This document shows, in pieces, positions 268 to 33,320 of a stretch of 37,316 bases of DNA. Under the pieces are notes generated by a model, which was given only the letters and a program-made list of their open reading frames with translations, was not told where the DNA came from and did not search any database. Position 1 is the first letter of the stretch. Each line of letters starts with the position of its first letter. The position numbers and the translations under genes were made by a program. Source of the stretch: a virus (lineage: Duplodnaviria > Heunggongvirae > Uroviricota > Caudoviricetes); IMG/VR virus record IMGVR_UViG_2537561977_000024; one strand, written 5' to 3'.

Positions 268-300
268 AAGCCCTCGCGTTGAGGGCTTTACTGATTTTTT
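268..300 (+). terminator. rho-independent terminator downstream of grxA
   Basis: GC stem aagccctc/gagggctt with 5-nt loop, then T-run at 295-300. Confidence 0.55.
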
Positions 301-665
301 CTGTGCTGTGGTTTAAACAAACTACTGATAAATAAGAAACACAGTGCCCCCAGCGCACACCAGAACACCGCGCTTAGTAACCATGCCAGCTCTTGCCAGA
401 ATGAGCGCGTCGGTGAAAAAAACAGCCGCATAATGAGCATTGAACAGGGTGCCGCCAGCATTGCGCCAAATAGAGGTTTCAGGACTTCTCTACGCTGTGA
501 AAAGAAACTGGCAACTGCTCCAGGAAGAATGAAAAACAGCAAGCCGATTTCAGGATGCCCGGCAGCCCGAAAAGCGCCTTTCATGTGCGTCGCCAGAAAA
601 AGGCACACCACAATGAAGAGGACAAAACAGCAGATTGCCCCCGCCCAACGTTGTTTATGTTTCAC
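288..665 (-). CDS. ybjM: inner membrane protein YbjM
   Basis: 125-aa hydrophobic ORF in the conserved position between grxA and ybjL. Confidence 0.8.
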   Translation of the reverse strand: MKHKQRWAGAICCFVLFIVVCLFLATHMKGAFRAAGHPEIGLLFFILPGAVASFFSQRREVLKPLFGAMLAAPCSMLIMRLFFSPTRSFWQELAWLLSAVFWCALGALCFLFISSLFKPQHRKNQ

Positions 666-934
666 TCGTTCCTCCTGACACTGCGTCTATCGAACACATT
701 TTTCGCCAGTGTGGCGTTCAGTAAGATAAAGCCGCTTCGCATTCCATGCTAATATAGGCCAACGCAATTCATATAGCCGTTGATACCTAATGTGATTACA
801 CTAGTAAAATATATTGTTACTTTACTATCGTTTAGGTGCGCTGAATGAATCTGCGCCCTGAATTCTGGTAAAAAACATTATCGTAAATTACCATTTCTTT
901 CAACAGCTTACTAGTAAACAAGAAGTTAGCCTCC

Positions 935-2620
935 GTGAATATAAACGTCGCCGAATTGTTAAATGGGAATTACATTCTGTTATTATTTGTGGTCCTCGCG
1001 CTTGGGCTATGTCTCGGAAAGTTACGACTTGGTTCGATCCAACTGGGTAATTCCATTGGCGTTTTAGTCGTATCGCTGTTATTAGGCCAACAACATTTCA
1101 GCATTAACACCGATGCGCTTAATCTTGGCTTTATGCTGTTTATTTTCTGCGTCGGGGTCGAAGCCGGACCGAACTTTTTTTCCATTTTTTTTCGCGATGG
1201 GAAAAATTACCTAATGTTAGCACTGGTGATGGTTGGCAGTGCGCTGGTGATCGCCTTAGGGTTAGGTAAGCTGTTTGGCTGGGATATTGGCCTGACGGCC
1301 GGTATGTTAGCAGGCTCTATGACGTCGACACCGGTTCTGGTCGGTGCTGGCGATACACTGCGTCATTCCGGCATGGAAAGCAGGCAGCTCTCACTGGCAC
1401 TGGATAATCTGAGCCTCGGGTATGCCTTAACCTATTTAATCGGTCTGGTGAGTTTGATTGTTGGTGCGCGTTACTTGCCGAAATTGCAGCATCAGGACTT
1501 ACAGACCAGCGCCCAGCAAATCGCCCGCGAACGTGGCCTGGACACTGATGCCAACCGTAAGGTTTATTTACCGGTGATCCGCGCCTATCGCGTCGGCCCG
1601 GAGCTGGTGGCCTGGACCGACGGCAAAAATCTGCGTGAACTGGGTATTTATCGACAAACCGGCTGCTACATTGAACGTATTCGACGTAACGGGATTCTGG
1701 CAAATCCAGACGGTGATGCCGTGCTACAAATGGGCGATGAAATAGCGTTGGTAGGCTATCCCGACGCCCATGCCCGACTCGATCCCAGCTTCCGTAACGG
1801 TAAAGAAGTTTTCGATCGTGACCTTCTCGACATGCGTATCGTCACTGAAGAAGTGGTCGTTAAAAACCATAACGCTGTAGGTAAACGTCTCGCACAACTG
1901 AAGTTGACCGATCACGGTTGCTTCCTTAACCGCGTCATTCGTAGCCAGATTGAGATGCCGATAGATGACAACGTCGTGCTTAACAAAGGTGACGTTTTAC
2001 AAGTCAGCGGTGATGCCCGTCGCGTAAAAACCATCGCCGATCGCATCGGCTTTATCTCGATTCACAGCCAGGTCACTGACCTGCTGGCATTTTGCGCCTT
2101 CTTTGTTATTGGGCTGATGATCGGGATGATCACCTTCCAGTTCAGCACATTCAGTTTCGGCATGGGGAACGCTGCCGGGTTGTTATTCGCCGGAATTATG
2201 CTGGGCTTTATGCGTGCTAACCACCCGACCTTCGGTTACATTCCGCAAGGTGCATTAAGCATGGTGAAAGAGTTCGGCTTGATGGTGTTTATGGCAGGCG
2301 TTGGTCTGAGCGCCGGTAGCGGTATTAATAACGGCCTGGGCGCGATTGGCGGTCAGATGTTGATTGCCGGATTAATTGTCAGTCTTGTGCCCGTGGTTAT
2401 CTGTTTCTTGTTCGGTGCTTATGTATTGCGAATGAACCGCGCACTGTTGTTCGGCGCAATGATGGGCGCACGCACCTGCGCGCCGGCAATGGAGATCATC
2501 AGTGATACAGCTCGCAGTAACATCCCTGCGCTGGGCTATGCGGGCACCTACGCAATCGCCAACGTCCTGCTGACGCTGGCAGGGACAATCATCGTCATGG
2601 TATGGCCAGGATTAGGATAA
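935..2620 (+). CDS. ybjL: putative AAE-family transporter YbjL
   Basis: 561-aa ORF with two membrane domains flanking central soluble (TrkA-C-like) region; matches E. coli YbjL in length and N-terminus. Confidence 0.88.
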
Positions 2621-3164: not shown

Positions 3165-4265
3165 TCATTCCATTTCGAAATCATCAATCCTCACTTCAAG
3201 CTCCAGACTGGTTGTAAAACCGTTATCGGGGCTGACGGTATGCGTCAGAGTCGTAATGGTCCATTCCGCATCATCTATCGGCTGTTTAAAGCCACTGACT
3301 TTCACTGGCATTTCCGTGTAGAGATCTGCCCGACCTTCAGCCAGTTGTAGCGAGAATGACGCAACGCCGCGTTGCAGGCGTTCCCACTGCATTTTCGCCG
3401 CCCGTTCGGCGTTGCTCCGGTTGGCATAGGTGCGATTAAGTACCAGCACGTTTTCATCTGTACCCACCAGGTAATCGCCCTGCTTCGCTTCCGGCTCTTT
3501 CTTCTGCTTCTTAGTCCTGCGCTTACGCTTCACCGTGGTGCTTTCATTCTTCGCGGGTTCGCGGGTATGCAACCAGCTGGCAATTACGCCCGTGTAGGCT
3601 CCGCGATCTGCCAGGGTAAAGCGGTGACTGTCGCCGTCCTTACGTGTGATAGTGATAACCGGTAGTGGTTTACCGCTGGCGCTTTTACTCTGTCCCTGCC
3701 GGATGAATAACAGATTGCCATTTTTCACCGACGCAATAGCACCGTACTGGCGCGCCAGCCGCATCAGAAAACTGCCGTCACTCTCATTGGTCTGGTCTAT
3801 ATGTTCCACGGGTTTATCTGACAGGTCTTTACCCAATGCCATCTTCAGTTTGTGCCGCACAGCTATTTCCTTCACCACTTCCCCGACGGTGGTCTTGTGC
3901 CACGACTTTTCACGGCGGGTATTCAGCGTTTCACGAAAATCAGCACTTCGCGCCCGGATAGTCAGGCGGTCCGGTGCGCCAGTGTGTTCAATCTCGTCCA
4001 CCGTGAATGCCCCTTTCGGGAAAAGCGGCTGCCCCTTCCAGCCCAGCGCCAGCGTAATAACCGCACCACGGCGCGGCAGCACGATTTTTCCGTCGGCGTC
4101 GTCCAGCTCCAGATCAAGCTGGTCCGCTTCAAAGCCCCGATTGTCCGTCAGCGTCAAACTCATCAGGCGGTTATCCAGCACAGTGGTGATATCCCTGCCC
4201 TCAATACTGATGCTGAATGCGGGAGTTTTGTTGCCTTTGTTAAGCAGTTCAGAGCTGAAATTCAT
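3165..4265 (-). CDS. D: P2 gpD-like tail protein
   Basis: 366-aa ORF in conserved position and order; length like P2 D. Confidence 0.85.
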   Translation of the reverse strand: MNFSSELLNKGNKTPAFSISIEGRDITTVLDNRLMSLTLTDNRGFEADQLDLELDDADGKIVLPRRGAVITLALGWKGQPLFPKGAFTVDEIEHTGAPDRLTIRARSADFRETLNTRREKSWHKTTVGEVVKEIAVRHKLKMALGKDLSDKPVEHIDQTNESDGSFLMRLARQYGAIASVKNGNLLFIRQGQSKSASGKPLPVITITRKDGDSHRFTLADRGAYTGVIASWLHTREPAKNESTTVKRKRRTKKQKKEPEAKQGDYLVGTDENVLVLNRTYANRSNAERAAKMQWERLQRGVASFSLQLAEGRADLYTEMPVKVSGFKQPIDDAEWTITTLTHTVSPDNGFTTSLELEVRIDDFEME

Positions 4266-10144: not shown

Positions 10145-10711
10145 TCAGGGAGATTTATTGTTCTTATTTGCCGGAAATTTTCGATAAATGGTAGAAACGC
10201 CTACATCAAAAATCAGTGCAATACGCTGTCTTGATTCTCCGGCCTCGAGTAAACGCCCAATCTGTGCCCACTGTTCGCTGGTCAACTTAGGACGGCGTCC
10301 ACCTACTCTGCCTTTAGCACGAGCTGCAGCCAGCCCCGCCCTGGTACGTTCAACTATCAGTTCGCGTTCCATTTCAGCCAGGGCACCCATGACATGAAAA
10401 AAGAAACGGCCCATTGGGGTACTGGTATCAATACTGTCAGTCAGGCTTCGGAAATTCACGCCACGCTGGCGCAGCTCTTCTATCAGCGTAACAAGATGCC
10501 GCATACTGCGCCCCAGTCTGTCCAGCTTCCAGACAACCAGCGTGTCTCCTGCCGATAGTGTCCTGAGCAGCTTTTTCAGCCCCGGTCTGTCGGACTTGGT
10601 GCCACTGATTTTATCCTCAAAAATCCGCTCACATCCCGCACAGTTCAGTGCATTGCGTTGCAAATCGGTGTTCTGGTCATTTGTTGACACGCGTACATAG
10701 CCAATAAGCAT
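10145..10711 (-). CDS. Gin/Pin/Cin-family serine DNA invertase
   Basis: N-terminus MLIGYVRVSTNDQNTDLQRNAL... with catalytic Ser and C-terminal HTH; near-identical in pattern to Gin/Pin as recalled. Confidence 0.9.
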   Translation of the reverse strand: MLIGYVRVSTNDQNTDLQRNALNCAGCERIFEDKISGTKSDRPGLKKLLRTLSAGDTLVVWKLDRLGRSMRHLVTLIEELRQRGVNFRSLTDSIDTSTPMGRFFFHVMGALAEMERELIVERTRAGLAAARAKGRVGGRRPKLTSEQWAQIGRLLEAGESRQRIALIFDVGVSTIYRKFPANKNNKSP

Positions 10712-10738
10712 GATCATCCCCCTGAATAAAAACCGGAG

Positions 10739-11236
10739 ATGATGCCAGTTAGCCGTTATCTCTGCATTTTCATAAACGTTCGTTTGGGAGCAGGTGCTCC
10801 AGCTATCGGAATTCCGTTCTTCTGGCCGTCGTCGGCAATGCCGAATACTGTCATGACAGAATGGGCCGATATGGTGTTTTTGAAGTTCAATGGGGCGACG
10901 TTCTCAGCAGCGACATATCCGATACTGGCCCTGGTGCTCCCAGGCCTGACGTTGCCTGACGCTCGCGGCGAATTTCCACGTATCTGGGATGATGGGCGTG
11001 GCGTGGATAACGGGCGTGCATTGCTAAGTTCCCAGATCGCAACCAGCATTGGTCGTTACGTTGGGACCGATGGTAATACAGCTTTTATTGGTATCAATAA
11101 TACTGATACTACGGGTTCCGGATACGCCAGTTGGTCGAGAGTATCAGCAACAAGTACAGGGGTGTTTGGGCAAACAGAATACCAGGGGGTTCGTCCTCGT
11201 AATATCGCATTCAACTTTCTTGTAAGGGCTAAATAA
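10739..11236 (+). CDS. silent alternative tail-fibre C-terminal cassette (Sv'-like)
   Basis: ORF with tail-collar-like motif RGEFPRIWDDGRGVDNGR; opposite strand to H; begins at the left recombination site in frame with H. Confidence 0.65.
   Translation: MMPVSRYLCIFINVRLGAGAPAIGIPFFWPSSAMPNTVMTEWADMVFLKFNGATFSAATYPILALVLPGLTLPDARGEFPRIWDDGRGVDNGRALLSSQIATSIGRYVGTDGNTAFIGINNTDTTGSGYASWSRVSATSTGVFGQTEYQGVRPRNIAFNFLVRAK
10768..10791. repeat. gix-like invertase recombination site (left)
   Basis: Minus-strand TGCTCCCAAACGAACGTTTATGAA; inverted copy of site at 12592-12615; resembles gix/hix dyad. Confidence 0.6.
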
Positions 11237-12604
11237 TGAAACCAGTACTTGACGACAATGGACTGGCTACCTATGCCGGAAATATTCGCTGTTATTACTA
11301 CGATGAATTAACAGGTGAATACACTGGTTGGTCAGATGAATTTATTAATGTAGGTGTGAGCATGCCCGGAAATTCTACAGATATTGACCCAGGAGAAGAT
11401 ATATCGGGCAAAGTGTCAGTATTTAGCGGTGACGGATGGAATTGGCAGGAAGACCATCGAGGCAATACTGTCTATTCAACAGAAGAAGGAGCCGCCAGCG
11501 TAGTTGACTACATCGGTGAGATTAAAGAAGGATTTACCGCAATTGCGCCGGGAACAAAATACGATAAATGGGACGGGGAAAAGTGGGTAACGGATAGTGA
11601 GGCTCAGCACATAGCCGATGTTGCAACCGCCGAAGCGGAAAAACAGGCCAGAATTGACCAGGCCAATAACTACATTAACAGCAGACAATGGCCCGGCAAA
11701 GCCGCTTTAGGCCGCCTGAGTGACGCAGAAAAAGAGCAATATAATCTGTGGTTGGATTATCTCGATGCGCTGGAAGCCGTGGACACCTCCAGTGCACCAG
11801 ATATTAACTGGCCTACTCAGCCTGATAATCGGGAGCAGGCTGAGTAAATGCGGCGCCATCGTATAAATACCCCGACTCAACGTCATCAGGACAATTAACC
11901 CAAACCAACGAGGGGTGGAAACGCCCCTCCGGATCTACATCTACGGTTTCTTCAACGCGAAAGTTTTCTTTGCCTTCAATTTTTTAATTCTTGCCCATGT
12001 CATTTAATCACCACTCAATAATCACAATACCATTTTTACCAGAGCCGGATTTATTACTACTGTTAGCAGCAATCCCACCACCACCGCCCCCATAACCAGT
12101 CGCATCCAGACCCACCCCTGTAGATCCTCGGCCTCCGGGGCCGCCACCGTTGCCGCCGCAATTTGCCGAGTTGGCTGAACCGTCATCCCCCCAACCCAAC
12201 CCCTGATTAACATCTCCGCCAACACCGGCTCCCGACGAACCACCGGATGTTGATGTGCCGCCATACCCATACTGACCACCAGTCGCGGAGAGATAAGAAC
12301 CAAAAGAAGATGACCCACCGGATGCGCCATTACCTGTAGTTACGCCAGCACCAGCAGAGCCAACGGTTACCGTAACGCTTGAAACGTCTGTGAGATCGAG
12401 AAGCAATTTCGAATATCCGCCACCGCCGCCACCGCCCCCGCGCTTTGTTGTATCGGTAGTCGACCCGCCAGACGCTCCACCACCAATTACTGTCACCTGG
12501 CATTTTCGCCCTTGTTGGAGTGCCTCAGGAACGTTCCAGTTAGATACTCCAGGGGTGTTGAAAACAACTATGTTTTGCAGGCCAAAGGCCGATGCTCCTA
12601 AACC
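10780..12604. other. invertible tail-fibre DNA segment (G-segment-like), ~1.8 kb
   Basis: Bounded by inverted gix-like sites; adjacent invertase; two alternative fibre tips in opposite orientations. Confidence 0.6.
11236..11847 (+). CDS. tail fibre assembly chaperone (U'/G-like) for the silent cassette
   Basis: 203-aa ORF immediately after the Sv'-like cassette; position and length typical. Confidence 0.75.
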   Translation: MKPVLDDNGLATYAGNIRCYYYDELTGEYTGWSDEFINVGVSMPGNSTDIDPGEDISGKVSVFSGDGWNWQEDHRGNTVYSTEEGAASVVDYIGEIKEGFTAIAPGTKYDKWDGEKWVTDSEAQHIADVATAEAEKQARIDQANNYINSRQWPGKAALGRLSDAEKEQYNLWLDYLDALEAVDTSSAPDINWPTQPDNREQAE

Positions 12605-22095: not shown

Positions 22096-23862
22096 ATGAA
22101 CACCACACTGACACCCGCAGATCTCGATCCCCGTCGGCAGGCCATGCTGCTGTACTTTCAGGGATACCGCGTCGCCCGCATTGCTGAAATGCTGGGCGAG
22201 AAAGTTGCAACCGTTCACAGCTGGAAAAAACGCGACAAGTGGGGTGACTATGGGCCGCTGGATCAGATGCAGCTCACCACCGCCGCACGCTACTGCCAGC
22301 TCATCATGAAGGAGCACAAAGAAGGGAAAGATTTCAAAGAGATTGACCTGCTGGCGCGCCAGTCTGAGCGCCACGCGCGGATCGGCAAGTTTAACAATGG
22401 CGGCAACGAAGCCGACTTAAACCCTAACGTCGCCAACCGCAACAAAGGCCCACGCCGTCAGCCTGAAAAGAATGTTTTCACCGATGAACAGATTGAGAAG
22501 CTGGAAGAAATCTTCCATTCCTCCATGTTCAACTACCAGCGCCACTGGTGGGAAGCCGGAAAAACCAACCGCATCCGCAACCTGCTGAAGTCACGCCAGA
22601 TCGGCGCGACCTTCTATTTTGCCCGTGAAGCCCTGATTGACGCCCTGCTGACCGGACGTAACCAGATTTTCCTTTCCGCCAGTAAGGCACAGGCCCACGT
22701 CTTTAAGCAGTACATCATCGACTTTGCCAAAGAAGTGGAGGTGGAGCTGAAAGGCGATCCGATGGTGCTTCCTAACGGGGCCACGCTTTACTTCCTCGGC
22801 ACCAATGCCCGCACTGCCCAGAGTTACCACGGCAACCTGTATCTGGATGAATATTTCTGGATACCAAAATTCCAGGAACTGCGCAAAGTGGCTTCCGGTA
22901 TGGCTATTCACAAGAAATGGCGACAGACCTATTTTTCCACGCCATCCAGCCTGACACACAGTGCTTATCCGTTCTGGTCCGGTGCACTGTTCAACCGTGG
23001 GCGCAACAAAGCCGATAAGGTGGACATCGACCTGTCCCACAGCAATCTGGCCCCCGGCCTGCTGTGCGCAGACGGGCAATACCGCCAGATAGTCACCGTG
23101 GAAGATGCGGTGCGCGGCGGCTGTAACCTGTTCGACCTCGACCAGCTACGCATGGAGTACAGCCCGGACGAATACCAGAACCTGCTGATGTGCGAGTTTG
23201 TGGACGATCTCGCGTCCGTGTTTCCGCTCAGCGAGCTGCAGGCGTGCATGGTGGACAGTTGGGAAGTCTGGACCGACTTTCATGCACTGGCGCTGCGCCC
23301 GTTTGGCTGGCGCGAAGTGTGGATCGGTTATGACCCGGCAAAAGGTACGCAAAACGGCGACAGCGCCGGATGCGTGGTGGTGGCACCGCCAGCCGTGCCG
23401 GGTGGTAAGTTCCGCATTCTTGAGCGTCACCAGTGGCGCGGGATGGACTTCCGCGCCCAGGCTGACGCCATCAAAAAACTTACCGAACAGTACAACGTGA
23501 CTTATATCGGTATCGACTCAACCGGCGTTGGTCACGGGGTTTACGAGAACGTGAAAGCGTTCTTTCCTGCCGTCCGGGAGTTTGTCTACAACCCCAACGT
23601 TAAAAACGCCCTGGTACTCAAGGCCTACGACATTATCAGCCACCGCCGTCTGGAGTTTGACGCCGGACACACCGACATTGCGCAGTCATTTATGGCAATC
23701 CGTCGCGCCACCACCGCCAGTGGCAACCGCCCGACCTATGAAGCCAGCCGCAGCGAAGAAGCCAGCCACGCCGATCTGGCATGGGCAACGATGCACGCAC
23801 TGTTTAACGAACCGCTGCAGGGCGAATCCGCCAATACCAGCAATATTGTGGAGATTTTTTGA
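22096..23862 (+). CDS. P: terminase large (ATPase) subunit P
   Basis: 588-aa ORF beginning MNTTLTPADLDPRRQAMLLYFQGYRVA like P2 gpP. Confidence 0.9.
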   Translation: MNTTLTPADLDPRRQAMLLYFQGYRVARIAEMLGEKVATVHSWKKRDKWGDYGPLDQMQLTTAARYCQLIMKEHKEGKDFKEIDLLARQSERHARIGKFNNGGNEADLNPNVANRNKGPRRQPEKNVFTDEQIEKLEEIFHSSMFNYQRHWWEAGKTNRIRNLLKSRQIGATFYFAREALIDALLTGRNQIFLSASKAQAHVFKQYIIDFAKEVEVELKGDPMVLPNGATLYFLGTNARTAQSYHGNLYLDEYFWIPKFQELRKVASGMAIHKKWRQTYFSTPSSLTHSAYPFWSGALFNRGRNKADKVDIDLSHSNLAPGLLCADGQYRQIVTVEDAVRGGCNLFDLDQLRMEYSPDEYQNLLMCEFVDDLASVFPLSELQACMVDSWEVWTDFHALALRPFGWREVWIGYDPAKGTQNGDSAGCVVVAPPAVPGGKFRILERHQWRGMDFRAQADAIKKLTEQYNVTYIGIDSTGVGHGVYENVKAFFPAVREFVYNPNVKNALVLKAYDIISHRRLEFDAGHTDIAQSFMAIRRATTASGNRPTYEASRSEEASHADLAWATMHALFNEPLQGESANTSNIVEIF

Positions 23863-24899
23863 TGGGAAAGAGTAAGAAGAACCGAGCTGCGGCGACGAAA
23901 CAGATCCAGCTTAAAAGTCAAACTACAGCCGAAGCATTCAGCTTCGGCGATCCCGTTCCTGTTCTGGACCGCCGTGAACTGCTGGACTATGTGGAATGCG
24001 TACAGATGGACCGTTGGTATGAGCCGCCCGTCAGCTTTGACGGACTGGCGCGCACCTTCCGCGCCGCCGTGCATCACAGTTCCCCGATTGCAGTAAAGTG
24101 CAACATTCTGACCAGTACCTATATCCCTCATCCGCTGCTCAGCCAGCAGGCTTTTTCGCGTTTTGTGCAGGACTATCTGGTATTTGGTAACGCCTACCTG
24201 GAGAAACGCACGAACCGATTCGGTGAAGTTATCGCCCTTGAGCCTGCCCTGGCAAAATACACCCGACGTGGATTAGACCTGGATACCTACTGGTTTGTGC
24301 AATACGGCATGACAACGCAACCGTATCAGTTCACGAAAGGCAGCATTTTTCACCTGATGGAACCGGATATCAACCAGGAGATCTACGGCCTGCCCGGTTA
24401 TCTTTCTGCCATTCCGTCAGCCCTGCTCAACGAGTCCGCCACGCTGTTCCGTCGAAAGTATTACATTAACGGCAGTCATGCAGGCTTCATCATGTACATG
24501 ACCGACGCCGCGCAGAACCAGGAGGATGTAAACAACCTCCGTAACGCGATGAAAAGCGCCAAAGGACCAGGTAACTTCCGCAATCTGTTTATGTACTCGC
24601 CTAACGGCAAAAAGGACGGACTTCAGATCATCCCATTGTCAGAAGTCGCGGCGAAGGATGAGTTTCTGAATATCAAAAATGTCAGCCGCGATGACATGAT
24701 GGCAGTGCACCGTGTGCCACCGCAAATGATGGGGATTATGCCGAATAATGTTGGGGGGTTTGGGGATGTGGAGAAGGCAAGCCGTGTATTCGTCCGAAAT
24801 GAGCTAATGCCACTACAAAAGCGATTACAGGAGATGAATGATTGGCTTGGCAAGGAGGCGATACGGTTTGATACCTACTCGCTAGATATAGCCCCATAA
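23859..24899 (+). CDS. Q: portal protein Q
   Basis: 346-aa ORF overlapping P stop; length like P2 gpQ. Confidence 0.9.
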   Translation: MMGKSKKNRAAATKQIQLKSQTTAEAFSFGDPVPVLDRRELLDYVECVQMDRWYEPPVSFDGLARTFRAAVHHSSPIAVKCNILTSTYIPHPLLSQQAFSRFVQDYLVFGNAYLEKRTNRFGEVIALEPALAKYTRRGLDLDTYWFVQYGMTTQPYQFTKGSIFHLMEPDINQEIYGLPGYLSAIPSALLNESATLFRRKYYINGSHAGFIMYMTDAAQNQEDVNNLRNAMKSAKGPGNFRNLFMYSPNGKKDGLQIIPLSEVAAKDEFLNIKNVSRDDMMAVHRVPPQMMGIMPNNVGGFGDVEKASRVFVRNELMPLQKRLQEMNDWLGKEAIRFDTYSLDIAP

Positions 24900-24933: not shown

Positions 24934-25674
24934 TTACTCAATAGGTTCAAACTCATCTTGAGGAATCAGCGTCGATTGACAGGCTTGGCTTAGTACCCCT
25001 GATAATTTACATAATAACCGATAGTTATGAGGAGCATCATCGCTAATCTTTTCGACCGTTAAAGTGATTGATTTTGGATCATCCAATAACATCTTCTTGA
25101 TGTCATTACTTAAATACCTAGGGCAGTAACCAACGATTTCAGCTGGTTTATCTGCACGAACGACAACAGCATCCCCATCGTATTCATTTTGAAGATCCAA
25201 GCAAAGACGCAAAATTTGCCCCGGTTTCAATTCAGATACACGAGCATTAGCTAAGCTATTCAAGTAACCAAGTCCATGTAAGAAGAAAAAATGCTCAAAG
25301 TTACCATCAGAATCAAAATCAATTTTTTTGAAAATCTGCAGCTGATCAGTGCTTCGTAAGCCTCCCGAGCGAGCAAGAATATCGATAGGATTTACCTTAT
25401 CTTCTTCAAATCCAAGCCATTTAATGAAACTCGGATACTCTGGACGTCTCGGTGATAAAAGGCGATTTTTAAAAAGAGGAAACAATTCTTCCGATACATA
25501 AGTTTCACGAACATCACTCATGCCGCTAAACTTTGTAAATTTAGAAGATTTAAGAGCACCTTTGGTATACCTGAAAACATACCCCGATTTGCGCTCTTGC
25601 AAGTTACCAACAACATGCCAGTCTCTGGTATCTGGTGCCTGCCATGCGACGTAAACGGAGTTTGTATTAGTCAT
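24934..25674 (-). CDS. HipS-like N-domain fused to C-terminal HIRAN-like domain
   Basis: N-terminal VGNL..FRY...LFPLFKNRLLSP resembles HipA N-subdomain; C-terminal LRLCLDLQNEYDGDAVVVRA...VGYCPRYLS..IKKMLL fits HIRAN consensus; start overlaps kinase stop (ATGA). Confidence 0.6.
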   Translation of the reverse strand: MTNTNSVYVAWQAPDTRDWHVVGNLQERKSGYVFRYTKGALKSSKFTKFSGMSDVRETYVSEELFPLFKNRLLSPRRPEYPSFIKWLGFEEDKVNPIDILARSGGLRSTDQLQIFKKIDFDSDGNFEHFFFLHGLGYLNSLANARVSELKPGQILRLCLDLQNEYDGDAVVVRADKPAEIVGYCPRYLSNDIKKMLLDDPKSITLTVEKISDDAPHNYRLLCKLSGVLSQACQSTLIPQDEFEPIE

Positions 25675-26585
25675 TCTAGTAACCTTCTGCGATTTTCCAT
25701 TACCATTAACGTTGCAAATCTACGTGCACTGTCGGATATACACGATGAAGGCACTTGGTTAAACACATCTGTAATGGAATCTTCTGTTAAAACGCTCAAC
25801 TTACCTAACCAATGGTCGCGAGCGGCAACTCTCCCTTCAACTGCATGTTGAAATGCTTCAACAGTCAGCAAGGGCTTTTTATCAGTTTTTGCTTTGAATA
25901 GCTCAGAGCGAGCTTTTCTTACAAAACATGGGATTTGTCGATTTTTATCTTTAGTATTAAGCCGTTCGTTACGCTCATCATCTAACATCTCCCTTCCTAA
26001 ACTAGCGGCATGATCGTATGTTGGACACAAAAACTGCTCACCAGTTTCATTGTTAAGCATGATTGCCCAATTTTCATGGTGGCGATCTTGATTACTCACA
26101 AGTGCATCGAGCATCAAATATCCACAAAATACATCTGCTGCATTTAGCCCGGTTAGATCATATACACTCGGAGGAGGCTTGATAGATTCCCTATCTAAAC
26201 AACCCAAGACCCTTGTGACAGTGTGTTCTCTGACCCTTACCGGCTTTTCCCCGGCTTGTAAAGGCCCAGGATAATCGAATGTCGAACTGTGAAGCACTTC
26301 ATTTCCCATTACCATCCGGAAACCAGATGGAATGATATTCTGAGTCACCACACCGAATCGACCATTGTATCGCGCCAAATCATAGCTAGCATGTGGAATG
26401 TTAAGCAAATGACATAACTCAGCAGCACACTTTTCAGACCAATGCTCGCCAGTACCTGGCCTAGAGTACTTAAACAACTGCAAATTTACAGTGTCATCGG
26501 AGAAATAGAACCAAAACTTCTCTTTGGTTCCTAACTGTTCAAGATCGTTAGCTACGGGGCTAAGCTCTACCAATTGGTATGGCAT
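25671..26585 (-). CDS. HipA-family Ser/Thr kinase core (HipT-like, lacks HipA N-subdomain)
   Basis: Gly-rich loop LGTKEKF at residues 18-24, catalytic VSNQDRHHENW (D167), PTYDHAAS (D191), with HipA-like spacing. Confidence 0.7.
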   Translation of the reverse strand: MPYQLVELSPVANDLEQLGTKEKFWFYFSDDTVNLQLFKYSRPGTGEHWSEKCAAELCHLLNIPHASYDLARYNGRFGVVTQNIIPSGFRMVMGNEVLHSSTFDYPGPLQAGEKPVRVREHTVTRVLGCLDRESIKPPPSVYDLTGLNAADVFCGYLMLDALVSNQDRHHENWAIMLNNETGEQFLCPTYDHAASLGREMLDDERNERLNTKDKNRQIPCFVRKARSELFKAKTDKKPLLTVEAFQHAVEGRVAARDHWLGKLSVLTEDSITDVFNQVPSSCISDSARRFATLMVMENRRRLLE

Positions 26586-26697: not shown

Positions 26698-26737
26698 AAT
26701 CAAATCAATATATAACTCTTATATGGCTTAACGCGCG

Positions 26738-26756
26738 CTCGTATCCCCGCCACGCC
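26738..26756 (-). other. candidate cos cohesive-end site
   Basis: Minus-strand GGCGTGGCGGGGATACGAG resembles P2/186 cos 19-mers as recalled (first 13 nt match the 186 form). Confidence 0.4.
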
Positions 26757-27142
26757 TGCCCGCTTTATGTAGTGGTTTTCATGCACTTGCATGACATAAA
26801 CAAAAGCCCGCCATTCCTGGCGGGCCTCAACTAAAACGATCTTCAAACGATCATGCGAATTCATGCGGCATAGACATGCATTGTTGCTTTATCGATCTTT
26901 TCTTACTTCAAGTGAGTCCTTATGGCCTCCTGTCCACCTTGCGCTGCGCGTTCCCCCTGCCTCCCTTTGTCATAACTTAGATTTAATCCTCATAAATCAA
27001 GAGGTACTACACAAAGTACCAACTCACAACACTCAACAAACAGCCAATAATGAGCATAATACTAACTTGACTACTCCATAAAAAAATACGTAAACTACAT
27101 TCATCAACAGTATTTCTCTAAAAAAGACGGGGTCACAATTCA

Positions 27143-27623
27143 ATGGCTACTACCAACTGTATTACTGTACTTACTGCTCGTGGTTTAACAGAGATTTTGA
27201 ACACAGGGGGAAGCCAAGCATGGAGACTTGACGCCAGCCATGCAGCTAAGCACGAATATTTAGTTTGTGTACAAAATTCGAGAAAGGACTGGGGATCACA
27301 AGAAGCAAAACATCATCATGCTTTTATGATCGGTCGAATCTCGGGAGTAAGCAGGGCTCCAGAAAACCCTAAACGCTGGATCATAAACATCAATTCTTAT
27401 GCTGAAATTGACATCCCAGGACAATGGGATGGCAATCGGAATCCCGTTTCTTATCGCAACCTCAAAGACATTGGCATTGAGGCTGACAAGTTGGAATTTA
27501 AAGCTCTTCCCAAATTAACCCCGACTAATTCGATTGTCGATCAAGCGGGTGATGAGTACGAAGAAGAAGAAGAAAATGTAGTTAAGCCGTTAACACTTCA
27601 GGAGGCAAAAGCAGGGCTAGCCC
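27143..27623 (+). CDS. hypothetical protein, 3' end replaced by IS insertion
   Basis: ORF after 550-bp AT-rich region; acidic DEYEEEEEN linker; reading frame runs into IS left end at 27624; original C-terminus continues after IS at 28927. Confidence 0.5.
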
Positions 27624-28917
27624 CTGAGGGATCCCCAGAAAATTTAGTAAACCATTATCATATTGGTATACCGTTGCTGTAGAACTTTCAGCCCTGCGTC
27701 AAGTGACAGTGTGTTTAGTATGAGTGGAGAATGTCGAATCACATTCTCCGCCAGTTTTAATAACGAGATGACTCGCCTGTGCTTCACTGTATTTGCCTGA
27801 TATTTATGATGTATCCCTTTGTTTTCCAGGCTGAAACCGCTTAACCACATAATGATACTGGCTAATGTTGCGATCAGACTCAATACCGTGACCCGCCCGG
27901 ATGAATGACTGGCACCAAACCGTAGTCCAAATCCCCAGCGAGGATTTTTTTCATCCCTGAAATTTTGCTCAATTTGCATTCTACGGCTGTATAATTTCAT
28001 TACCTGTTTTGGCGAGAACTCAGTACTGTTTGTGAAAATAAACCATGGTGATTTCCCGGCAGTACGAGCTTTAGCCGTCACCGATGGTCTGGTTGCTCTT
28101 TCCTTCGAGCGTTTAAATCTACGACCTTTAGGCTTACTTTTATAAAGATAAAAATGCCCTTCATGTTGTGCATTTTTATCTCGACCCAGCAGGCCTTCAC
28201 CTAAATAAATTGCTGTCGTTGATGCTTTTGTGCCTGAGTCCGACACCTTTTCCCAGCCATTACCAACATTGTAATAATGATTGCCCAGTACCCGGCAAAT
28301 ATAGGTCCAGCCACGGGAGCGGAGCTGTTGGAACCATCGCCCCTGAAAACCGGCATCTGTAATAACAATGACATCAGTCCCGGGGGAAAAGCACTCAGCA
28401 AGCGATTCCAGAAAACGCTCATGTACATCTGCATTCGCTGTCTGTGATGATGGAACGACACAACTCATCAACGGTAAAGAACGCCCGTCACATGCCAGGC
28501 TTGCCCGCAAAAGCTGAAAACGAGAGGCATGATAAGCACTCCAGTCAATGAGTATCACAACACGAGACATTCCCCGCGTAATCTTTTGGGTAATTCGCTG
28601 AAAAATGGTGGAAACCTCATTTTGCAAATGTCGATTCCCCAACAGTCGATCCACCCGCTTTATTTTGTTTTTAACTGATGCCGTACCGGTTAAATGACGC
28701 CCGATACTGGTAAGTGTGAGGGAAGCGCCATTTATTACAGCATTAGTTGCGTCAATCAGTGATTTTTGACGGTAAAGATGCAAAGGGGCCAGTATGTTGT
28801 TAAGGAAATTTTGGCATAATGAACGTGCAGGCATAGTGGTGATCTCCTTGAAATTGTTAGCACAATCAATTAGATCACATCTCACTATGCCTGTCTTGTT
28901 TTCTGGGGATTCCTCAG
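27624..28917. mobile_element. IS10-like insertion sequence (IS4 family)
   Basis: Terminal inverted repeats CTGAGGGATCCCCAGAAAA / CTGAGGAATCCCCAGAAAA; flanked by direct repeat GGCTAGCCC (27615-27623 and 28919-28927). Confidence 0.8.
27644..28834 (-). CDS. IS10-type DDE transposase
   Basis: Motifs KRVDRLLGNRHL, TDAGF, YSRRMQIEQNFRDEK align with IS10 transposase as recalled; start set at MPARS. Confidence 0.85.
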   Translation of the reverse strand: MPARSLCQNFLNNILAPLHLYRQKSLIDATNAVINGASLTLTSIGRHLTGTASVKNKIKRVDRLLGNRHLQNEVSTIFQRITQKITRGMSRVVILIDWSAYHASRFQLLRASLACDGRSLPLMSCVVPSSQTANADVHERFLESLAECFSPGTDVIVITDAGFQGRWFQQLRSRGWTYICRVLGNHYYNVGNGWEKVSDSGTKASTTAIYLGEGLLGRDKNAQHEGHFYLYKSKPKGRRFKRSKERATRPSVTAKARTAGKSPWFIFTNSTEFSPKQVMKLYSRRMQIEQNFRDEKNPRWGFGLRFGASHSSGRVTVLSLIATLASIIMWLSGFSLENKGIHHKYQANTVKHRRVISLLKLAENVIRHSPLILNTLSLDAGLKVLQQRYTNMIMVY

Positions 28918-29243
28918 GGGCTAGCCCTATACTTTGGTGTTAATGAAGAAAATATTCAAATAACTATACAAGGTTAAGGCTTTTAAACCGGCATAAGTGG
29001 CCATTACTTTTCGTTCGAAGTGGCGCTTCCGGTCTAACAAGCATCTAATAGGATTTTCGTATCTATCACAAATCCCAAAAGGTAATTTGCAGCCCATCAT
29101 ACGTAGCAAAACTAACGTTCGGTTAAATCTGAGCGGAAGTGAAAATAATGGTTACTGTATTTTACCCCATGACTAATGCCCCACTAAACTAGTTGTTCAA
29201 CGTTGCTGACGTCAGAAGCAAGTTCAGACGCCAGCAACGTTTC

Positions 29244-29827: not shown

Positions 29828-32242
29828 TTAATACAGGTTCCGCCACTTATCATCTTCCCGCAAACGCTGGTTCCGATAGAAGATACGCAGGCCTGCTCCT
29901 GACGGAATACTGCCGCCGCGAAGGAGTAAATCGACCTCTTTCTCGCTACCATCAAATCCTCTGGACTTCAGCTCATAGACGAGCTGCAGTCGCTGATGGT
30001 CTGTAATTCGCTGTTTGTAGTCTTTACGCCGTTTCGGTTTAACCAGGCGTAACCTTGCTGCCAGTTCCCGGCGCTCTTTTTTGCTCATACTGTGCAGGTA
30101 ATCGTGCAACTCATTGTCATCCATGCGAGTAATGTCCGTTCTAGTGTCCCCATCAGCTGATTTATCTTTCTCCTGTTGGTTCAAATTTTCAGCAAGGGGA
30201 CAGTTATTGCCACGAGTCCAAGGGGCGCAAGCGCCCTGGTCGGCTGCCGCCTCCTGAACGTCAACGGCTTTACGAACCATTTTCCACTTCACTGCATGAG
30301 TGCAGATCTTGCCCTCTGCAATAGGTGACCAGATGCCATAAATACGAATGCCGTGATCGCCATAGGCGGTCGGCTCTTCGTTGATTTCATAAGCGGTTCT
30401 GATGAGGTGATATTTACGGGGAACCAGTACGCCGCCCTGCTTCATGATGTAGGTGGCAAAACAACCAGCATCAGCAGCAGCCAGGATGGCATCAAGGCGC
30501 GGGTTATCCAGTACCGGCGCACCTGCTTTTTTGTCCCCCTGTTGCCTTGCCGCCTGACCAGCCAGCAATCGCAGTTCACGGTAAGCCTGACGCCCCGGAA
30601 TGCCAAAGAAGCGGAATTGCTGAACACGATGCAAAGACGCCCAGGCGTTCACGTATTCAGCGTTATCACGCAGAGATTTACCCGTTTCCTTGCTGATCTC
30701 GCCAGCCAGACCACGCCCGTCAATGTTCTTACTGATGTATTTCGCTATGTAGCTTGTCGGCGTTCCTTTGCGCGGGTTAATCAGCTCAGACTTAAAGCGC
30801 GGCCCCGTGTTATTGCCCAGCTCCTCGCGGTCTTCACGGATAGCAAACTTACGCAACAATGCAGTAATGGCGCGGCGGTCTTTTTTGCGCATGAAACACA
30901 ACAGGTGCCAGTGAACTGTGCCGTCGTGATGCGGCTCAGCCACCCGCACGCCATACCAGCGCAACCCGGCTTTGTGCATCGCCTTACGAAATGCAGCAAA
31001 CATACCGACCAGATAATCGCTGCTTTGTCTTACCGTCGCATTTGTCCAGGTCGGGTTGGGCCTGCCGTTATTTAGCGTGGAATGGAAACGTGACGGACAG
31101 GTGATGGTGTAGAAAACGGCGCAGTCACCGCGCATTTCCGCGATAAGCTCCAGACCTTTAACACAGGCCATCATCTCATTGCGGCGATGCGCAGGGTTGC
31201 TGCTGCTGGCGTTTACCACATCCTCCATGTCCAGCGTGTCGCCGTCTTCGTTCACCAGTTCATGAGAACGGAAAAACTCCAGCGACTTACGGCGCTGCTC
31301 ACGTTTATGCAACACGGCTTCATAGCTGACATAGGGAGATGCTTTTTTGCTGACAAGGCAGACAGCACGCAACTGCTCTTCCCGCCATTCGCAACGCATC
31401 TTCCATAATTTCCGATACCACCAGTCGGCGCACAACATACGCGCCAGCGAACCCGGAATGAGTTCATAGGGCACGGGTTTACGGCGGTTTCTTTTCCGAC
31501 GGAGTTGCTCAAACGCAGGCGGGATTACATCCAGACGCAGGGTTTCCGCTGCCACCCTTTCCCATGTATTGCGGATTTCTTCTGGCTTAACGTCATCGGT
31601 GGCATACAAATCGCCACAAGCGGCATCAAGGCACATACTCATATGCGCAGCTACCAGGGTGGACAGGCGTTTCACCTGATCCTGACTCATTTCAGGCAGG
31701 ATCAGCAGGCCGTCCAGCCCTTCATGGCTTGCCATAAAGCGAAAAGATGCAGATAGCTGACTGTCGCGTACATGCTCCAGTCGTTCCAGACATGGCTTAA
31801 TCGTCTCACGTAAATAGCGGGAATAAGCCTTTGGCCTGCCAAGGCTGCTGAAGTATTCAATACGTTGCATCAGCGGCTTGCTGATATGGGAAGGCTGGGC
31901 GTTGACGTCCGCCAGAATGACCATATCCGGATTAAAACGCTGCTGCTCATGCACCAGCTTTGCCCGACTAATGAGCTTATCCTGTTCCATTTCGCGCTGG
32001 ACAGGATCACGGGATTCATTAAAGAAATAACGCTCCCAGACCTGATCACTCAGCGCCTCACGGCGCAGCTGTTCCTGCTCGTTATCGGCAGCGTACAGAG
32101 TGATCAGGTTTGAAAGCGTAGAAACCGGCGCAACTTCCACCGGGTCCAGATAAGGGTTAATGGCCTTTTTCGGGCTGTTCCATGAGAACGATGCGGCAGC
32201 TTCGTTAAAGCCGCAGCAGTTGTTCATATCGGCATGACTCAT
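29828..32242 (-). CDS. A: rolling-circle replication initiator A
   Basis: 804-aa ORF in position of P2/186 gene A; start coupled to dam stop. Confidence 0.88.
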
Positions 32243-33096
32243 GCACGTACTCCGTACACGGCAGAACTATCCACGCCACGCGAATAATCAAATCCCACCC
32301 AGCAGCGCGGCCCGGAAACAGCAATGATTTCTGTTGCTGATTTACCCTCGCCAGCTGCCACACCGATGCTGCGTTTTGCCTTGATGTAGTGGTGAGTAAA
32401 ATTGCGATACAGCGAACGGATCAGGGATGTGTCACTGTTAGAAACAATGACCGGATGTCCTTCTGATGACCGATGTTCAAGAACAGATGCCAGGTGATAC
32501 TGGTCATCTTCAGTGAAGCCGTCAGTGTGATAGCCGGAAAACGTACCGTCATACGGCGGATCGCAATACACCACATCCCCCGCCTTCAACATCGCCAGCG
32601 TTTCATCAAAGCTGGCGCAGATAAACGTTGCTCGCTGGGCCTTTTCTGCAAATGCGCGAATTTCTTTTTCAGGGAAATACGGATTTTTATAATTACCGTA
32701 GGGAATGTTGAAATGCCCGCTCTTGTTATAGCGACATAAACCACGGTAACCGTGACGATTGAGATACAGGAAATATACCGCTTTCATGAAATCAGTAATT
32801 TCAGTGGAGTAATTAAACTCCTGCCTTATGTTGTAATAAGCCACCTCCCTGTTTGCGATCTCAAATAAAACTCTGGCGCGAGATATAAACGATTCACAAT
32901 CAGCGGCAACCTTTTTATAGAGGTTGATTAAATCAGGATTAATATCCGCAACCAGATAGCTGGGGTAATCCGTCTCCATCATCACAGCACAGGAACCCGC
33001 GAAAGGTTCAACCAGTCGCGGGCCAGCAGGAAGGTGTTTTTTCAGTTCGGACATAATGGCGGTTTTATTTCCCGCCCATTTCAGGATAGTGCTCAT
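32239..33096 (-). CDS. dam: Dam-like N6-adenine DNA methyltransferase
   Basis: LKWAGNK N-terminus, FAGS, DPPY motifs align with E. coli Dam; start set at [11 protein letters not shown]. Confidence 0.85.
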
Positions 33097-33320
33097 ACAG
33101 CACCTCCGTTGTAATGTTTGCCTTTCAGCTCTGCGATTTCCTGGCAGGTAATGCAAAGCTGCACTCCCGGAATGGCGCGGCGTCGTGCTGGCGGAATTGG
33201 CGCTTCACATTCAATACAAAGCACGCGAGACACGCCCGGTGTTTTGGCACGGGCAGCACGAATATGGCGCTGGCGTTCTTCTTCAACGCGCTGCTGTACG
33301 AGATCCATTGCATCAGCCAT
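33093..33320 (-). CDS. TraR/DksA-family C4 zinc-finger protein
   Basis: CIECEAPIP...CITCQ four-Cys pattern in 75-aa ORF. Confidence 0.7.
   Translation of the reverse strand: MADAMDLVQQRVEEERQRHIRAARAKTPGVSRVLCIECEAPIPPARRRAIPGVQLCITCQEIAELKGKHYNGGAV

Follow-up and report, generated by a model that had tools for sequence, protein, structure and literature searches.

A cargo gene of a P2/186-like prophage interrupted by ISEc60 represents a large unnamed family with a predicted PUA-like N-terminal domain

Domains of the PUA-like EVE/YTH/ASCH fold read modified bases or nucleotides. The DUF3427/PUA-HNH combination is the architecture of modification-dependent restriction enzymes (PMC6765204), and PUA-like pockets sense N6-methyl-deoxyadenosine monophosphate (m6dAMP) from phage-induced genome degradation in MisA of the Metis system (10.1101/2025.11.05.686725) and in PUA-Cal-HAD (10.64898/2026.01.15.699771); the latter two are a precedent for a pocket of this kind recognizing a modified nucleotide in free form, not as part of a polymer. 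In P2-like phages, the gpA–gpQ interval is a known hotspot of defence genes (Rousset et al., 2022; PMC9122126). Here we describe a gene from this interval in the virus record IMGVR_UViG_2537561977_000024 (IMG/VR, Caudoviricetes), a stretch of 37,316 nt, hereinafter the window, which is a P2/186-like prophage. The gene is transcribed from the plus strand and is interrupted near its 3' end by ISEc60, an insertion sequence (IS) of the IS4 family (Table 1).

In silico deletion of positions 27624–28927 yields a single open reading frame (ORF) of 176 amino acids (aa), with the end AKAGLA-LYFGVNEENIQITIQG-stop, the C-terminal sequence AKAGLALYFGVNEENIQITIQG, and the stop codon ending at 28977. A preliminary description of this DNA, made from the sequence alone, proposed a plus-strand gene whose C-terminus had been replaced by an IS inserted 16 codons before the original stop, with the original tail readable in frame past the element and the current product ending in IS-encoded residues. 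All of this is confirmed by the excision and borne out by IS-free alleles (below): the insertion displaces 16 native codons, and the product ends in 19 residues encoded by the IS instead. The reconstructed ORF is also intact, as had been supposed, its length being 176 rather than the suggested 177 aa.

The reconstructed 664-bp sequence is found in eight of 5,426 complete Escherichia coli genomes at 99.5–100% identity over the full length, junction included. Examples of strains with the intact allele are E. coli A41 (NZ_CP028735.1, 3791092–3791622) and CFSAN061772. The IS-free allele in these eight chromosomes is annotated as hypothetical protein WP_000246368.1 of 176 aa. Comparison of the prophage-borne copies from E. 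coli and from Enterobacter hormaechei (88% protein identity) gives a ratio of nonsynonymous to synonymous substitution rates (dN/dS) of 0.096, which indicates purifying selection, and phrog_37247 matches the reconstructed protein end to end (E 6e-94). Hence homologues exist, the alternative of a non-coding region is excluded, and the locus is a genuine protein-coding cargo gene of a P2/186-like prophage.

The inserted element was initially called IS10-like, which holds for its ends and not for its identity. It is 100% identical over 1294 bp to annotated E. coli copies of ISEc60, has 19-bp imperfect terminal inverted repeats (CTGAGGGATCCCCAGAAAA and CTGAGGAATCCCCAGAAAA, 18 of 19 positions matching), and encodes a transposase matching Pfam DDE_Tnp_1 and the NCBIfam IS4 transposase model (E 1e-107). 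The repeats start with CTGAG..ATCCCC, presumably as the ends of IS10 do. ISEc60 resembles IS10 and other IS4-family insertions in the DDE transposase, terminal repeats, and symmetric target site; it differs in producing a 10-bp GG-N6-CC duplication, compared to 9 bp for IS10. Such 10-bp GG-N6-CC duplications flank all four ISEc60 copies examined (the one in the window and three others), suggesting a symmetric target preference. The identity of the IS to other copies, together with the perfect duplication, implies that the insertion is evolutionarily very young, and a query spanning the gene–IS junction had no match across the junction in the 5,426 complete genomes. The insertion is thus recent and strain-private.

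The restored protein belongs to a family whose members have three parts. The N-terminal domain of about 120 residues has near-invariant T11, G23, W27, N45, F61, R78, A87, W95, R99, P101, and Y104, where W27, F61, W95, Y104, R78, R99, N45, and P101 are conserved at the level of at least 90% in the sequence alignments. It is followed by a linker of 5–43 residues, usually acidic (mean charge –3.5), and by a 28-residue C-terminal module, LTxxEAKxGLAxxFGVxxxxIxITIxG, in which A155, K156, and I172 are conserved in at least 90% of 133 diverse members. The part of the gene preceding the IS encodes the N-domain (approximately residues 1–121), the disordered acidic linker (approximately 122–148), and the first half of the C-terminal module (PLTLQEAKAGLA). 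The acidic stretch DEYEEEEEN, listed in the preliminary description, is present and includes a (GAA)5 tract. The length of this poly-Glu tract is polymorphic (4, 5, or 6 Glu) among otherwise near-identical alleles.

AlphaFold2 models, with a mean predicted local distance difference test score (pLDDT) of 85.1 when built with 42 sequences and 90.9 with 133 sequences, contain a beta-barrel at residues 1–121, a low-confidence linker, and a C-terminal helix (152–163) with a tail at pLDDT 83–94. High pLDDT past a disordered tether suggests that the C-terminal module is docked on the barrel. The modeled N-domain has the pseudo-barrel beta fold with flanking helices that characterizes the PUA-like superfamily. 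The highest fold-likeness scores are observed for the EVE protein PH1033 (7.4) and the EVE-HNH enzyme VcaM4I (6.9), followed by YTH domains (5.5–6.9), DrmA (6.5), the 5-hydroxymethylcytosine (5hmC)-specific PD-T4-3 (6.3), ASCH (6.2), THYN1 (5.7), and the McrB N-domains (4.8–5.2). The top Foldseek matches (ASCH, YTH, and PD-T4-3) point weakly in the same direction, and a fold search in BFVD was uninformative. At the level of sequence families, none of the 133 members matches the Pfam EVE, YTH, ASCH, PUA, or DUF3850 models at E ≤ 10, and hhalign against P2 Orf91 (DUF3850) gives a probability of 0.4%. The evidence is internally consistent, and we assign the N-domain to PUA-like barrels of the EVE/YTH/ASCH kind with moderate confidence.

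The window allele retains native residues 1–160, which comprise the barrel and linker as well as PLTLQEAKAGLA, the 12 residues with which the module begins. It has lost residues 161–176, now displaced beyond the element, and with them the family-conserved G164, V165, I170, and I172, each conserved at 90% or above; for I172 this holds across 133 sequences that are 29–56% identical to the E. coli allele. Judged from these alignments, the lost segment is among the most conserved ones in a family diverging to about 30% identity. As the IS cuts off the most conserved half of a family-wide module, the earlier wording, "possibly inactivated or altered," is reasonable, and the chimeric allele most likely represents a loss of function or a strongly impaired, hypomorphic variant. 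The barrel should still be translatable, since transcription from the native promoter enters the IS antisense to the transposase gene, and may retain residual ligand binding. One could also suppose that the 179-aa chimera still works or has acquired a new function, so that the gene is altered rather than inactivated: it keeps the barrel, the linker, and the beginning of the module with invariant A155 and L159 and near-invariant K156, G158, and A160, and homologues consisting of the N-domain only or of its fusions do exist. We regard this as quite unlikely, given the loss of the four conserved residues and the dominant architecture of the family, in which more than 600 relatives mostly keep the module flush at the C-terminus. 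Whatever its residual activity, the natural IS allele is a ready-made C-terminal truncation to be set against the intact allele.

The preliminary description could not assign the gene to a family, and the reconstructed protein indeed has no match among Pfam, NCBIfam, and PADLOC-DB models; Pfam scanning of the 133 diverse members at E ≤ 10 reveals no recurrent weak family, a profile search against PDB sequences yields no match, and literature searches (by accession, and for stand-alone EVE/PUA defence genes) do not find the family described anywhere. The suggested profile and structure-based homology search was more productive: apart from the PUA-like fold of the N-domain, it revealed, among 1.84 billion representatives, 1,004 clusters (50% identity) at E ≤ 1e-3, including 309 at E ≤ 1e-30, nearly all of them 160–190 aa long and covering the whole profile. 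When the N-domain alone was used as a profile, the top 120 matches were all standard, unnamed members of about 170 aa. For that reason the census of fusions rests on three proteins, in which the N-domain is joined to DUF3427 and HNH_2 (P0204), to the abortive-infection domain AbiTii, or to MazE/AbrB (P0222). The C-terminal module alone as a query (a small set of 99 candidates) retrieved only "proteins" of 27–72 aa and no second family with the module; at five loci, covering two such proteins, these matches are mis-called C-terminal pieces of intact family genes.

Similarly, many NCBI assemblies call only a 59–62-aa C-terminal piece starting at an internal TTG (LEFKALP...; loci L064–L069, approximately 3653–4189), where the full ORF of 177–178 aa is intact in the DNA. 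Because the ORFs are intact, the short pieces are an annotation artefact that hides the family, and frequent pseudogenization, which had also been considered, is rejected.

The gene is carried by P2-like prophages, small mobilizable plasmids, integrative and conjugative elements (ICEs), integrase-linked elements, and jumbo phages. Outside prophages it is found chiefly on small plasmids: PLSDB contains 193 plasmid records with the gene, 163 of them predicted to be mobilizable, and most of those listed are 4.4–6.4 kb long. The Acinetobacter pRAY/pABLAC2 plasmids have it just downstream of mobA, where it was called only "hypothetical" (PMC6160057), and in enterobacterial ColE1-like plasmids it is also downstream of mob genes. 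Other locations are among the transfer genes of a Pseudomonas oryzihabitans ICE, in a chromosomal islet of Pectobacterium, and in lytic Brevundimonas jumbo phages. A 20-kb contig that bears the label of the archaeon Candidatus Nitrosotalea (NZ_RCMB01000012.1, loci L047 and L048) has two copies; the family being otherwise mostly proteobacterial, these could come from contamination or a mobile element.

In the ColE1-like enterobacterial plasmids, a gene encoding a Sel1-like repeat protein (about 195 aa, annotated as TPR) begins 4–5 nt past the stop codon of the homologue (L055, 1156–1746; L061, 3816–4406; L063, 1615–2199; L019, 3160–3747). This suggests a two-gene operon in that clade only. The partner is confined to this one plasmid clade and absent from the window; its close homologues are found in about 23 plasmid records.

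The position of the gene in the prophage is defined relative to the cohesive-end site (cos), which lies in the 557-bp region upstream of the gene. Positions 26744–26786 align to the reverse complement of the cos region in the P2 record, and the block 26723–26880, with cos inside, is conserved in 94 P2-like phage records. A phage 186 cos sequence had no match in the window at up to three mismatches, and cos was placed by the P2 alignment and the conserved block instead. The upstream region was originally described as long, AT-rich, and promoter-like. This description omitted cos. A cluster of sigma-70-like matches forms a candidate promoter, whose position corresponds to that of the cos-proximal old-tin promoter in the P2 annotation; the consensus scan itself is weak (nine matches vs. 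5.6 expected).

The studied gene is situated between cos and the gpA region and is transcribed away from cos. The P2 record has the same arrangement for old and tin, which are located between cosR and gpA/orf91, are read away from cos, and have their transcript starts about 150 bp from cosR. BLAST and hhalign comparisons with P2 Old, Tin, and Orf91 reveal no similarity. The proposed status of a single-gene candidate in a hotspot therefore holds, as a candidate: the gene is in the cos-proximal hotspot, in the old-tin slot, with no conserved partner.

Cos divides the hotspot into two sides. The gene is on the gpA side, and the gpQ side is occupied by genes of a HipA-like kinase and a HIRAN/Couple_hipA protein, which match the PADLOC candidate system PDC-M03 A/B (E 2e-122 and 7e-93). 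Rousset et al. (2022; PMC9122126) list a "HIRAN-kinase" system in their supplementary tables. The three genes lie side by side in this prophage and in at least three genomes of E. coli, so that our gene might be taken for a third component of this system. This is effectively refuted. The gene and the pair are on opposite strands, and cos between them places them at opposite ends of the packaged genome. Moreover, in P2-like prophages the gpA-side position of the intact gene remains constant beside five different gpQ-side cargos: (1) the HIRAN protein and kinase, (2) a PIN_12 protein, (3) a pair of 233-aa and 271-aa proteins with DUF7946, (4) an AAA_21/SMC_N ATPase with a 224-aa protein in Klebsiella, and (5) in Enterobacter, a trio of genes encoding 279, 214, and 268 aa. 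It thus occurs with four cargos other than PDC-M03 A/B, and on plasmids with none of them, whereas the pair also accompanies other gpA-side genes, e.g., Mrr_cat (Table S5 in Rousset et al., 2022; PMC9122126). Clustering of flanking ORFs over 42 loci identifies no conserved neighbour. The gene is, therefore, a self-contained module outside the HipA-like/HIRAN system.

More generally, the gpQ-side and gpA-side slots flanking cos vary independently. The Enterobacter trio, found on the gpQ side of an E. hormaechei P2-like prophage (locus L003, 3125–5443), is unannotated and could correspond to the "three hypothetical proteins" system validated by Rousset et al.

Taken jointly, the reality of the gene, its disruption by the IS, its independence as a module in the old/tin slot, and the PUA-like fold appear very probable. 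The fusions, the precedents of PUA-like sensors, the hotspot, and the carriers, which are mobile elements throughout, together assign the family to the conflicts of bacteria with such elements. Our preferred functional reading, which is tentative, is that the protein is an effector-less reader with a role in phage exclusion. Expressed from a prophage, plasmid, or ICE, it would act in conflicts between mobile elements, its barrel binding a modified base in a nucleic acid or a modified mononucleotide, and the tethered C-terminal module would turn this into an output, whether by associating with itself, by being released, or by binding a partner, with exclusion of other phages as the outcome. A separate and more novel possibility is a one-protein defence, where ligand binding to the barrel would free the tethered module as the effector. 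In the window allele, the reader barrel would still be made and the output module destroyed. For the whole explanation, comprising genetics, structure, and function, we see about an even chance.

Several observations weigh against the functional part of this explanation. We found no experiment or annotation tying any family member to phage resistance, and neither a recognizable effector in the protein nor, over the 42 loci, a conserved partner gene that would supply one. With a mean net charge of about –0.6, the N-domain is not basic, so that avid coating of DNA is less in keeping with it than the binding of a small ligand or a flipped base. The docking of the C-terminal module on the barrel, probable as it is, is read from pLDDT only, and N-domain-only and fusion relatives show the barrel without the module, so that a truncated product might keep activity. 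Finally, lytic jumbo phages, ICE transfer genes, and tiny plasmids suit equally well a function serving the element itself, in anti-defence or establishment.

The latter possibility implies a free reader derived from the sensor domain of a defence protein and acting as a decoy, which masks modified bases on the element DNA from type IV restriction enzymes with related readers, or as a sponge, which sequesters a modified-nucleotide alarm such as m6dAMP, thus blinding Metis and PUA-Cal-HAD. It would account for the lack of both an effector domain and a conserved partner, and for carriers that must invade new hosts, such as the mobilizable plasmids (163 out of 193), the ICE with one copy among its transfer genes, and the lytic Brevundimonas phages. 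Further, the same N-domain is the putative sensor of the HNH and AbiTii fusions, with which a free copy could compete, and PUA-like pockets do bind m6dAMP in Metis and PUA-Cal-HAD. On the other hand, the slot in P2-like prophages is that of exclusion genes expressed in the lysogen. Anti-defence genes cluster in the plasmid leading region (PMC11541004), whereas this gene, being downstream of mob genes, would by the usual layout enter the recipient last (with oriT, the origin of transfer, unmapped here). Temperate P2-like phages and small plasmids also spare the host DNA, so an m6dAMP sponge would bring them no obvious benefit. We therefore consider an anti-defence or establishment factor, as either decoy or sponge, rather unlikely.

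Less probable still is a ligand-responsive regulator or maintenance factor controlling copy number, transfer, or induction of the element. The cue sensed by the barrel would be a nucleotide or a nucleic acid, and the C-terminal helix-strand module would dimerize or bind DNA. The relative P0222, which has a MazE/AbrB DNA-binding domain in place of this module, would be in line with such a role, as would the fixed gpA-side position relative to cos, whichever of the five gpQ-side cargos is present, and the near-constant presence of the gene on very small plasmids with few genes, including the Rep-less pRAY (PMC6160057). A role in pRAY replication was considered for the latter reason; the same paper is silent on whether the gene falls inside the replicating pRAY deletion derivative. 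However, the 28-residue module matches no DNA-binding family in Pfam, the protein lacks a basic character, the 42 loci show no conserved operators or target genes in the neighbourhood, and a regulatory role tied to one backbone is at odds with the great diversity of carrier backbones.

The local event is an ordinary IS knockout of a prophage cargo gene, and the more useful part is the gene that was hit. It leads to a large unnamed family (more than 1,000 clusters), stand-alone in the hotspot, in ICEs, and on clinically common small plasmids (pRAY and ColE1-like). The family, for which no model exists, combines a predicted PUA-like fold with a tethered conserved mini-module and no effector. As a free-standing protein, it could serve as a minimal defence or as a decoy against defence. 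Both outcomes, if true, would extend modified-nucleotide sensing in the conflicts of bacteria and mobile elements, and if the decoy or sponge variant were true, a widespread anti-defence family would be hidden in a "defence" hotspot. As a predicted reader, the gene is a reasonable candidate for experiments.

The remaining part of the window comprises host genes at one end and typical prophage genes (Table 1), as well as genes for a Dam-like methylase, a 186-type CI repressor, and an integrase. The G+C content of the gpA–gpQ interval is 38–47%, compared to 51–61% in the phage core. The Dam-like N6-adenine methyltransferase gene (32239–33156, minus strand) is directly upstream of gpA, and the same is observed in related prophages with the studied gene. 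It could matter if the reader recognizes N6-methyladenine; a coincidence is also possible. At 10145–11847, a gene for a Gin/Cin-like serine invertase (Resolvase and HTH_7) adjoins a tail-fibre assembly gene and an unassigned ORF of 165 aa. These genes probably make up an inversion switch for tail fibres (host range), located where P2 has its Z/fun region.

Table 1. Coordinates of the interrupted gene, the inserted element, and other features of the window
Feature	Position	Strand	Comment
Present chimeric ORF	27143–27682	+	179 aa
5' part of the broken gene	27143–27623	+	codons 1–160 and the first base of codon 161
(GAA)5 tract	27560–27574	+	poly-Glu of the linker, within DEYEEEEEN
IS-encoded tail of the chimeric ORF	27624–27682	+	19 codons (PEGSPENLVNHYHIGIPLL) and stop
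Displaced native 3' end	28928–28977	+	remainder of codon 161 to stop (LYFGVNEENIQITIQG and stop)
ISEc60 (IS4 family)	27624–28917	transposase minus	1294 bp
DDE transposase	27644–28834 or 27644–28885	minus	as in RefSeq copies, or from the first GTG, respectively
Target-site duplication, left copy	27614–27623		GGGCTAGCCC, perfect 10-bp repeat
Target-site duplication, right copy	28918–28927		GGGCTAGCCC, perfect 10-bp repeat
Candidate promoter	27023–27096	+	three clustered sigma-70-like matches, e.g., TTGACT-18-TAAACT at 27067–27096; 47–120 bp before ATG
cos	26738–26756		homologue of the 19-nt P2 cohesive-end sequence; reverse complement GGCGTGGCGGGGATACGAG
HipA-like kinase and HIRAN/Couple_hipA	24934–26585	minus	304 aa and 246 aa; between gpQ and cos
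Host genes ybjM and ybjL	288–2620		
Tail and capsid genes of the prophage			present in the window
Terminase gpP	22096–23862		
Portal gpQ	23859–24899		
gpA	29828–32242	minus	

Among described systems, the locus resembles P2 old-tin, with which it shares the slot between cos and DinI/orf91-gpA, the orientation, the small size, and the low G+C content; phage exclusion is documented for old and tin and not for the studied gene. With the EVE, YTH, and ASCH readers (PH1033, YTHDC1, TRIP4-ASCH, and THYN1) no sequence-profile relationship is detectable, and they lack the tethered 28-residue C-terminal module of our family. MisA of Metis and PUA-Cal-HAD are similar in having an N-terminal PUA-like pocket domain and an E. 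coli mobile-element or defence context. Unlike the protein described here, these sensors are covalently linked with an NADase or phosphoesterase effector and work with partner enzymes, and their motifs VWWGWWxKxxExxP and TPxYY differ from those of our family, as judged by comparison of motifs. The 176-aa protein contains no nuclease domain according to Pfam and NCBIfam, has no conserved neighbour, and so is not itself a type IV endonuclease; the same absence of a nuclease or other enzymatic domain is seen in more than 95% of the listed relatives. Still, the predicted fold is that of the sensor domains in type IV restriction enzymes (VcaM4I with EVE-HNH, PD-T4-3 with GIY-YIG, the McrB N-domain, and DUF3427/PUA-HNH), and the rare relative P0204 has precisely the N-domain of this family together with DUF3427 and HNH_2.

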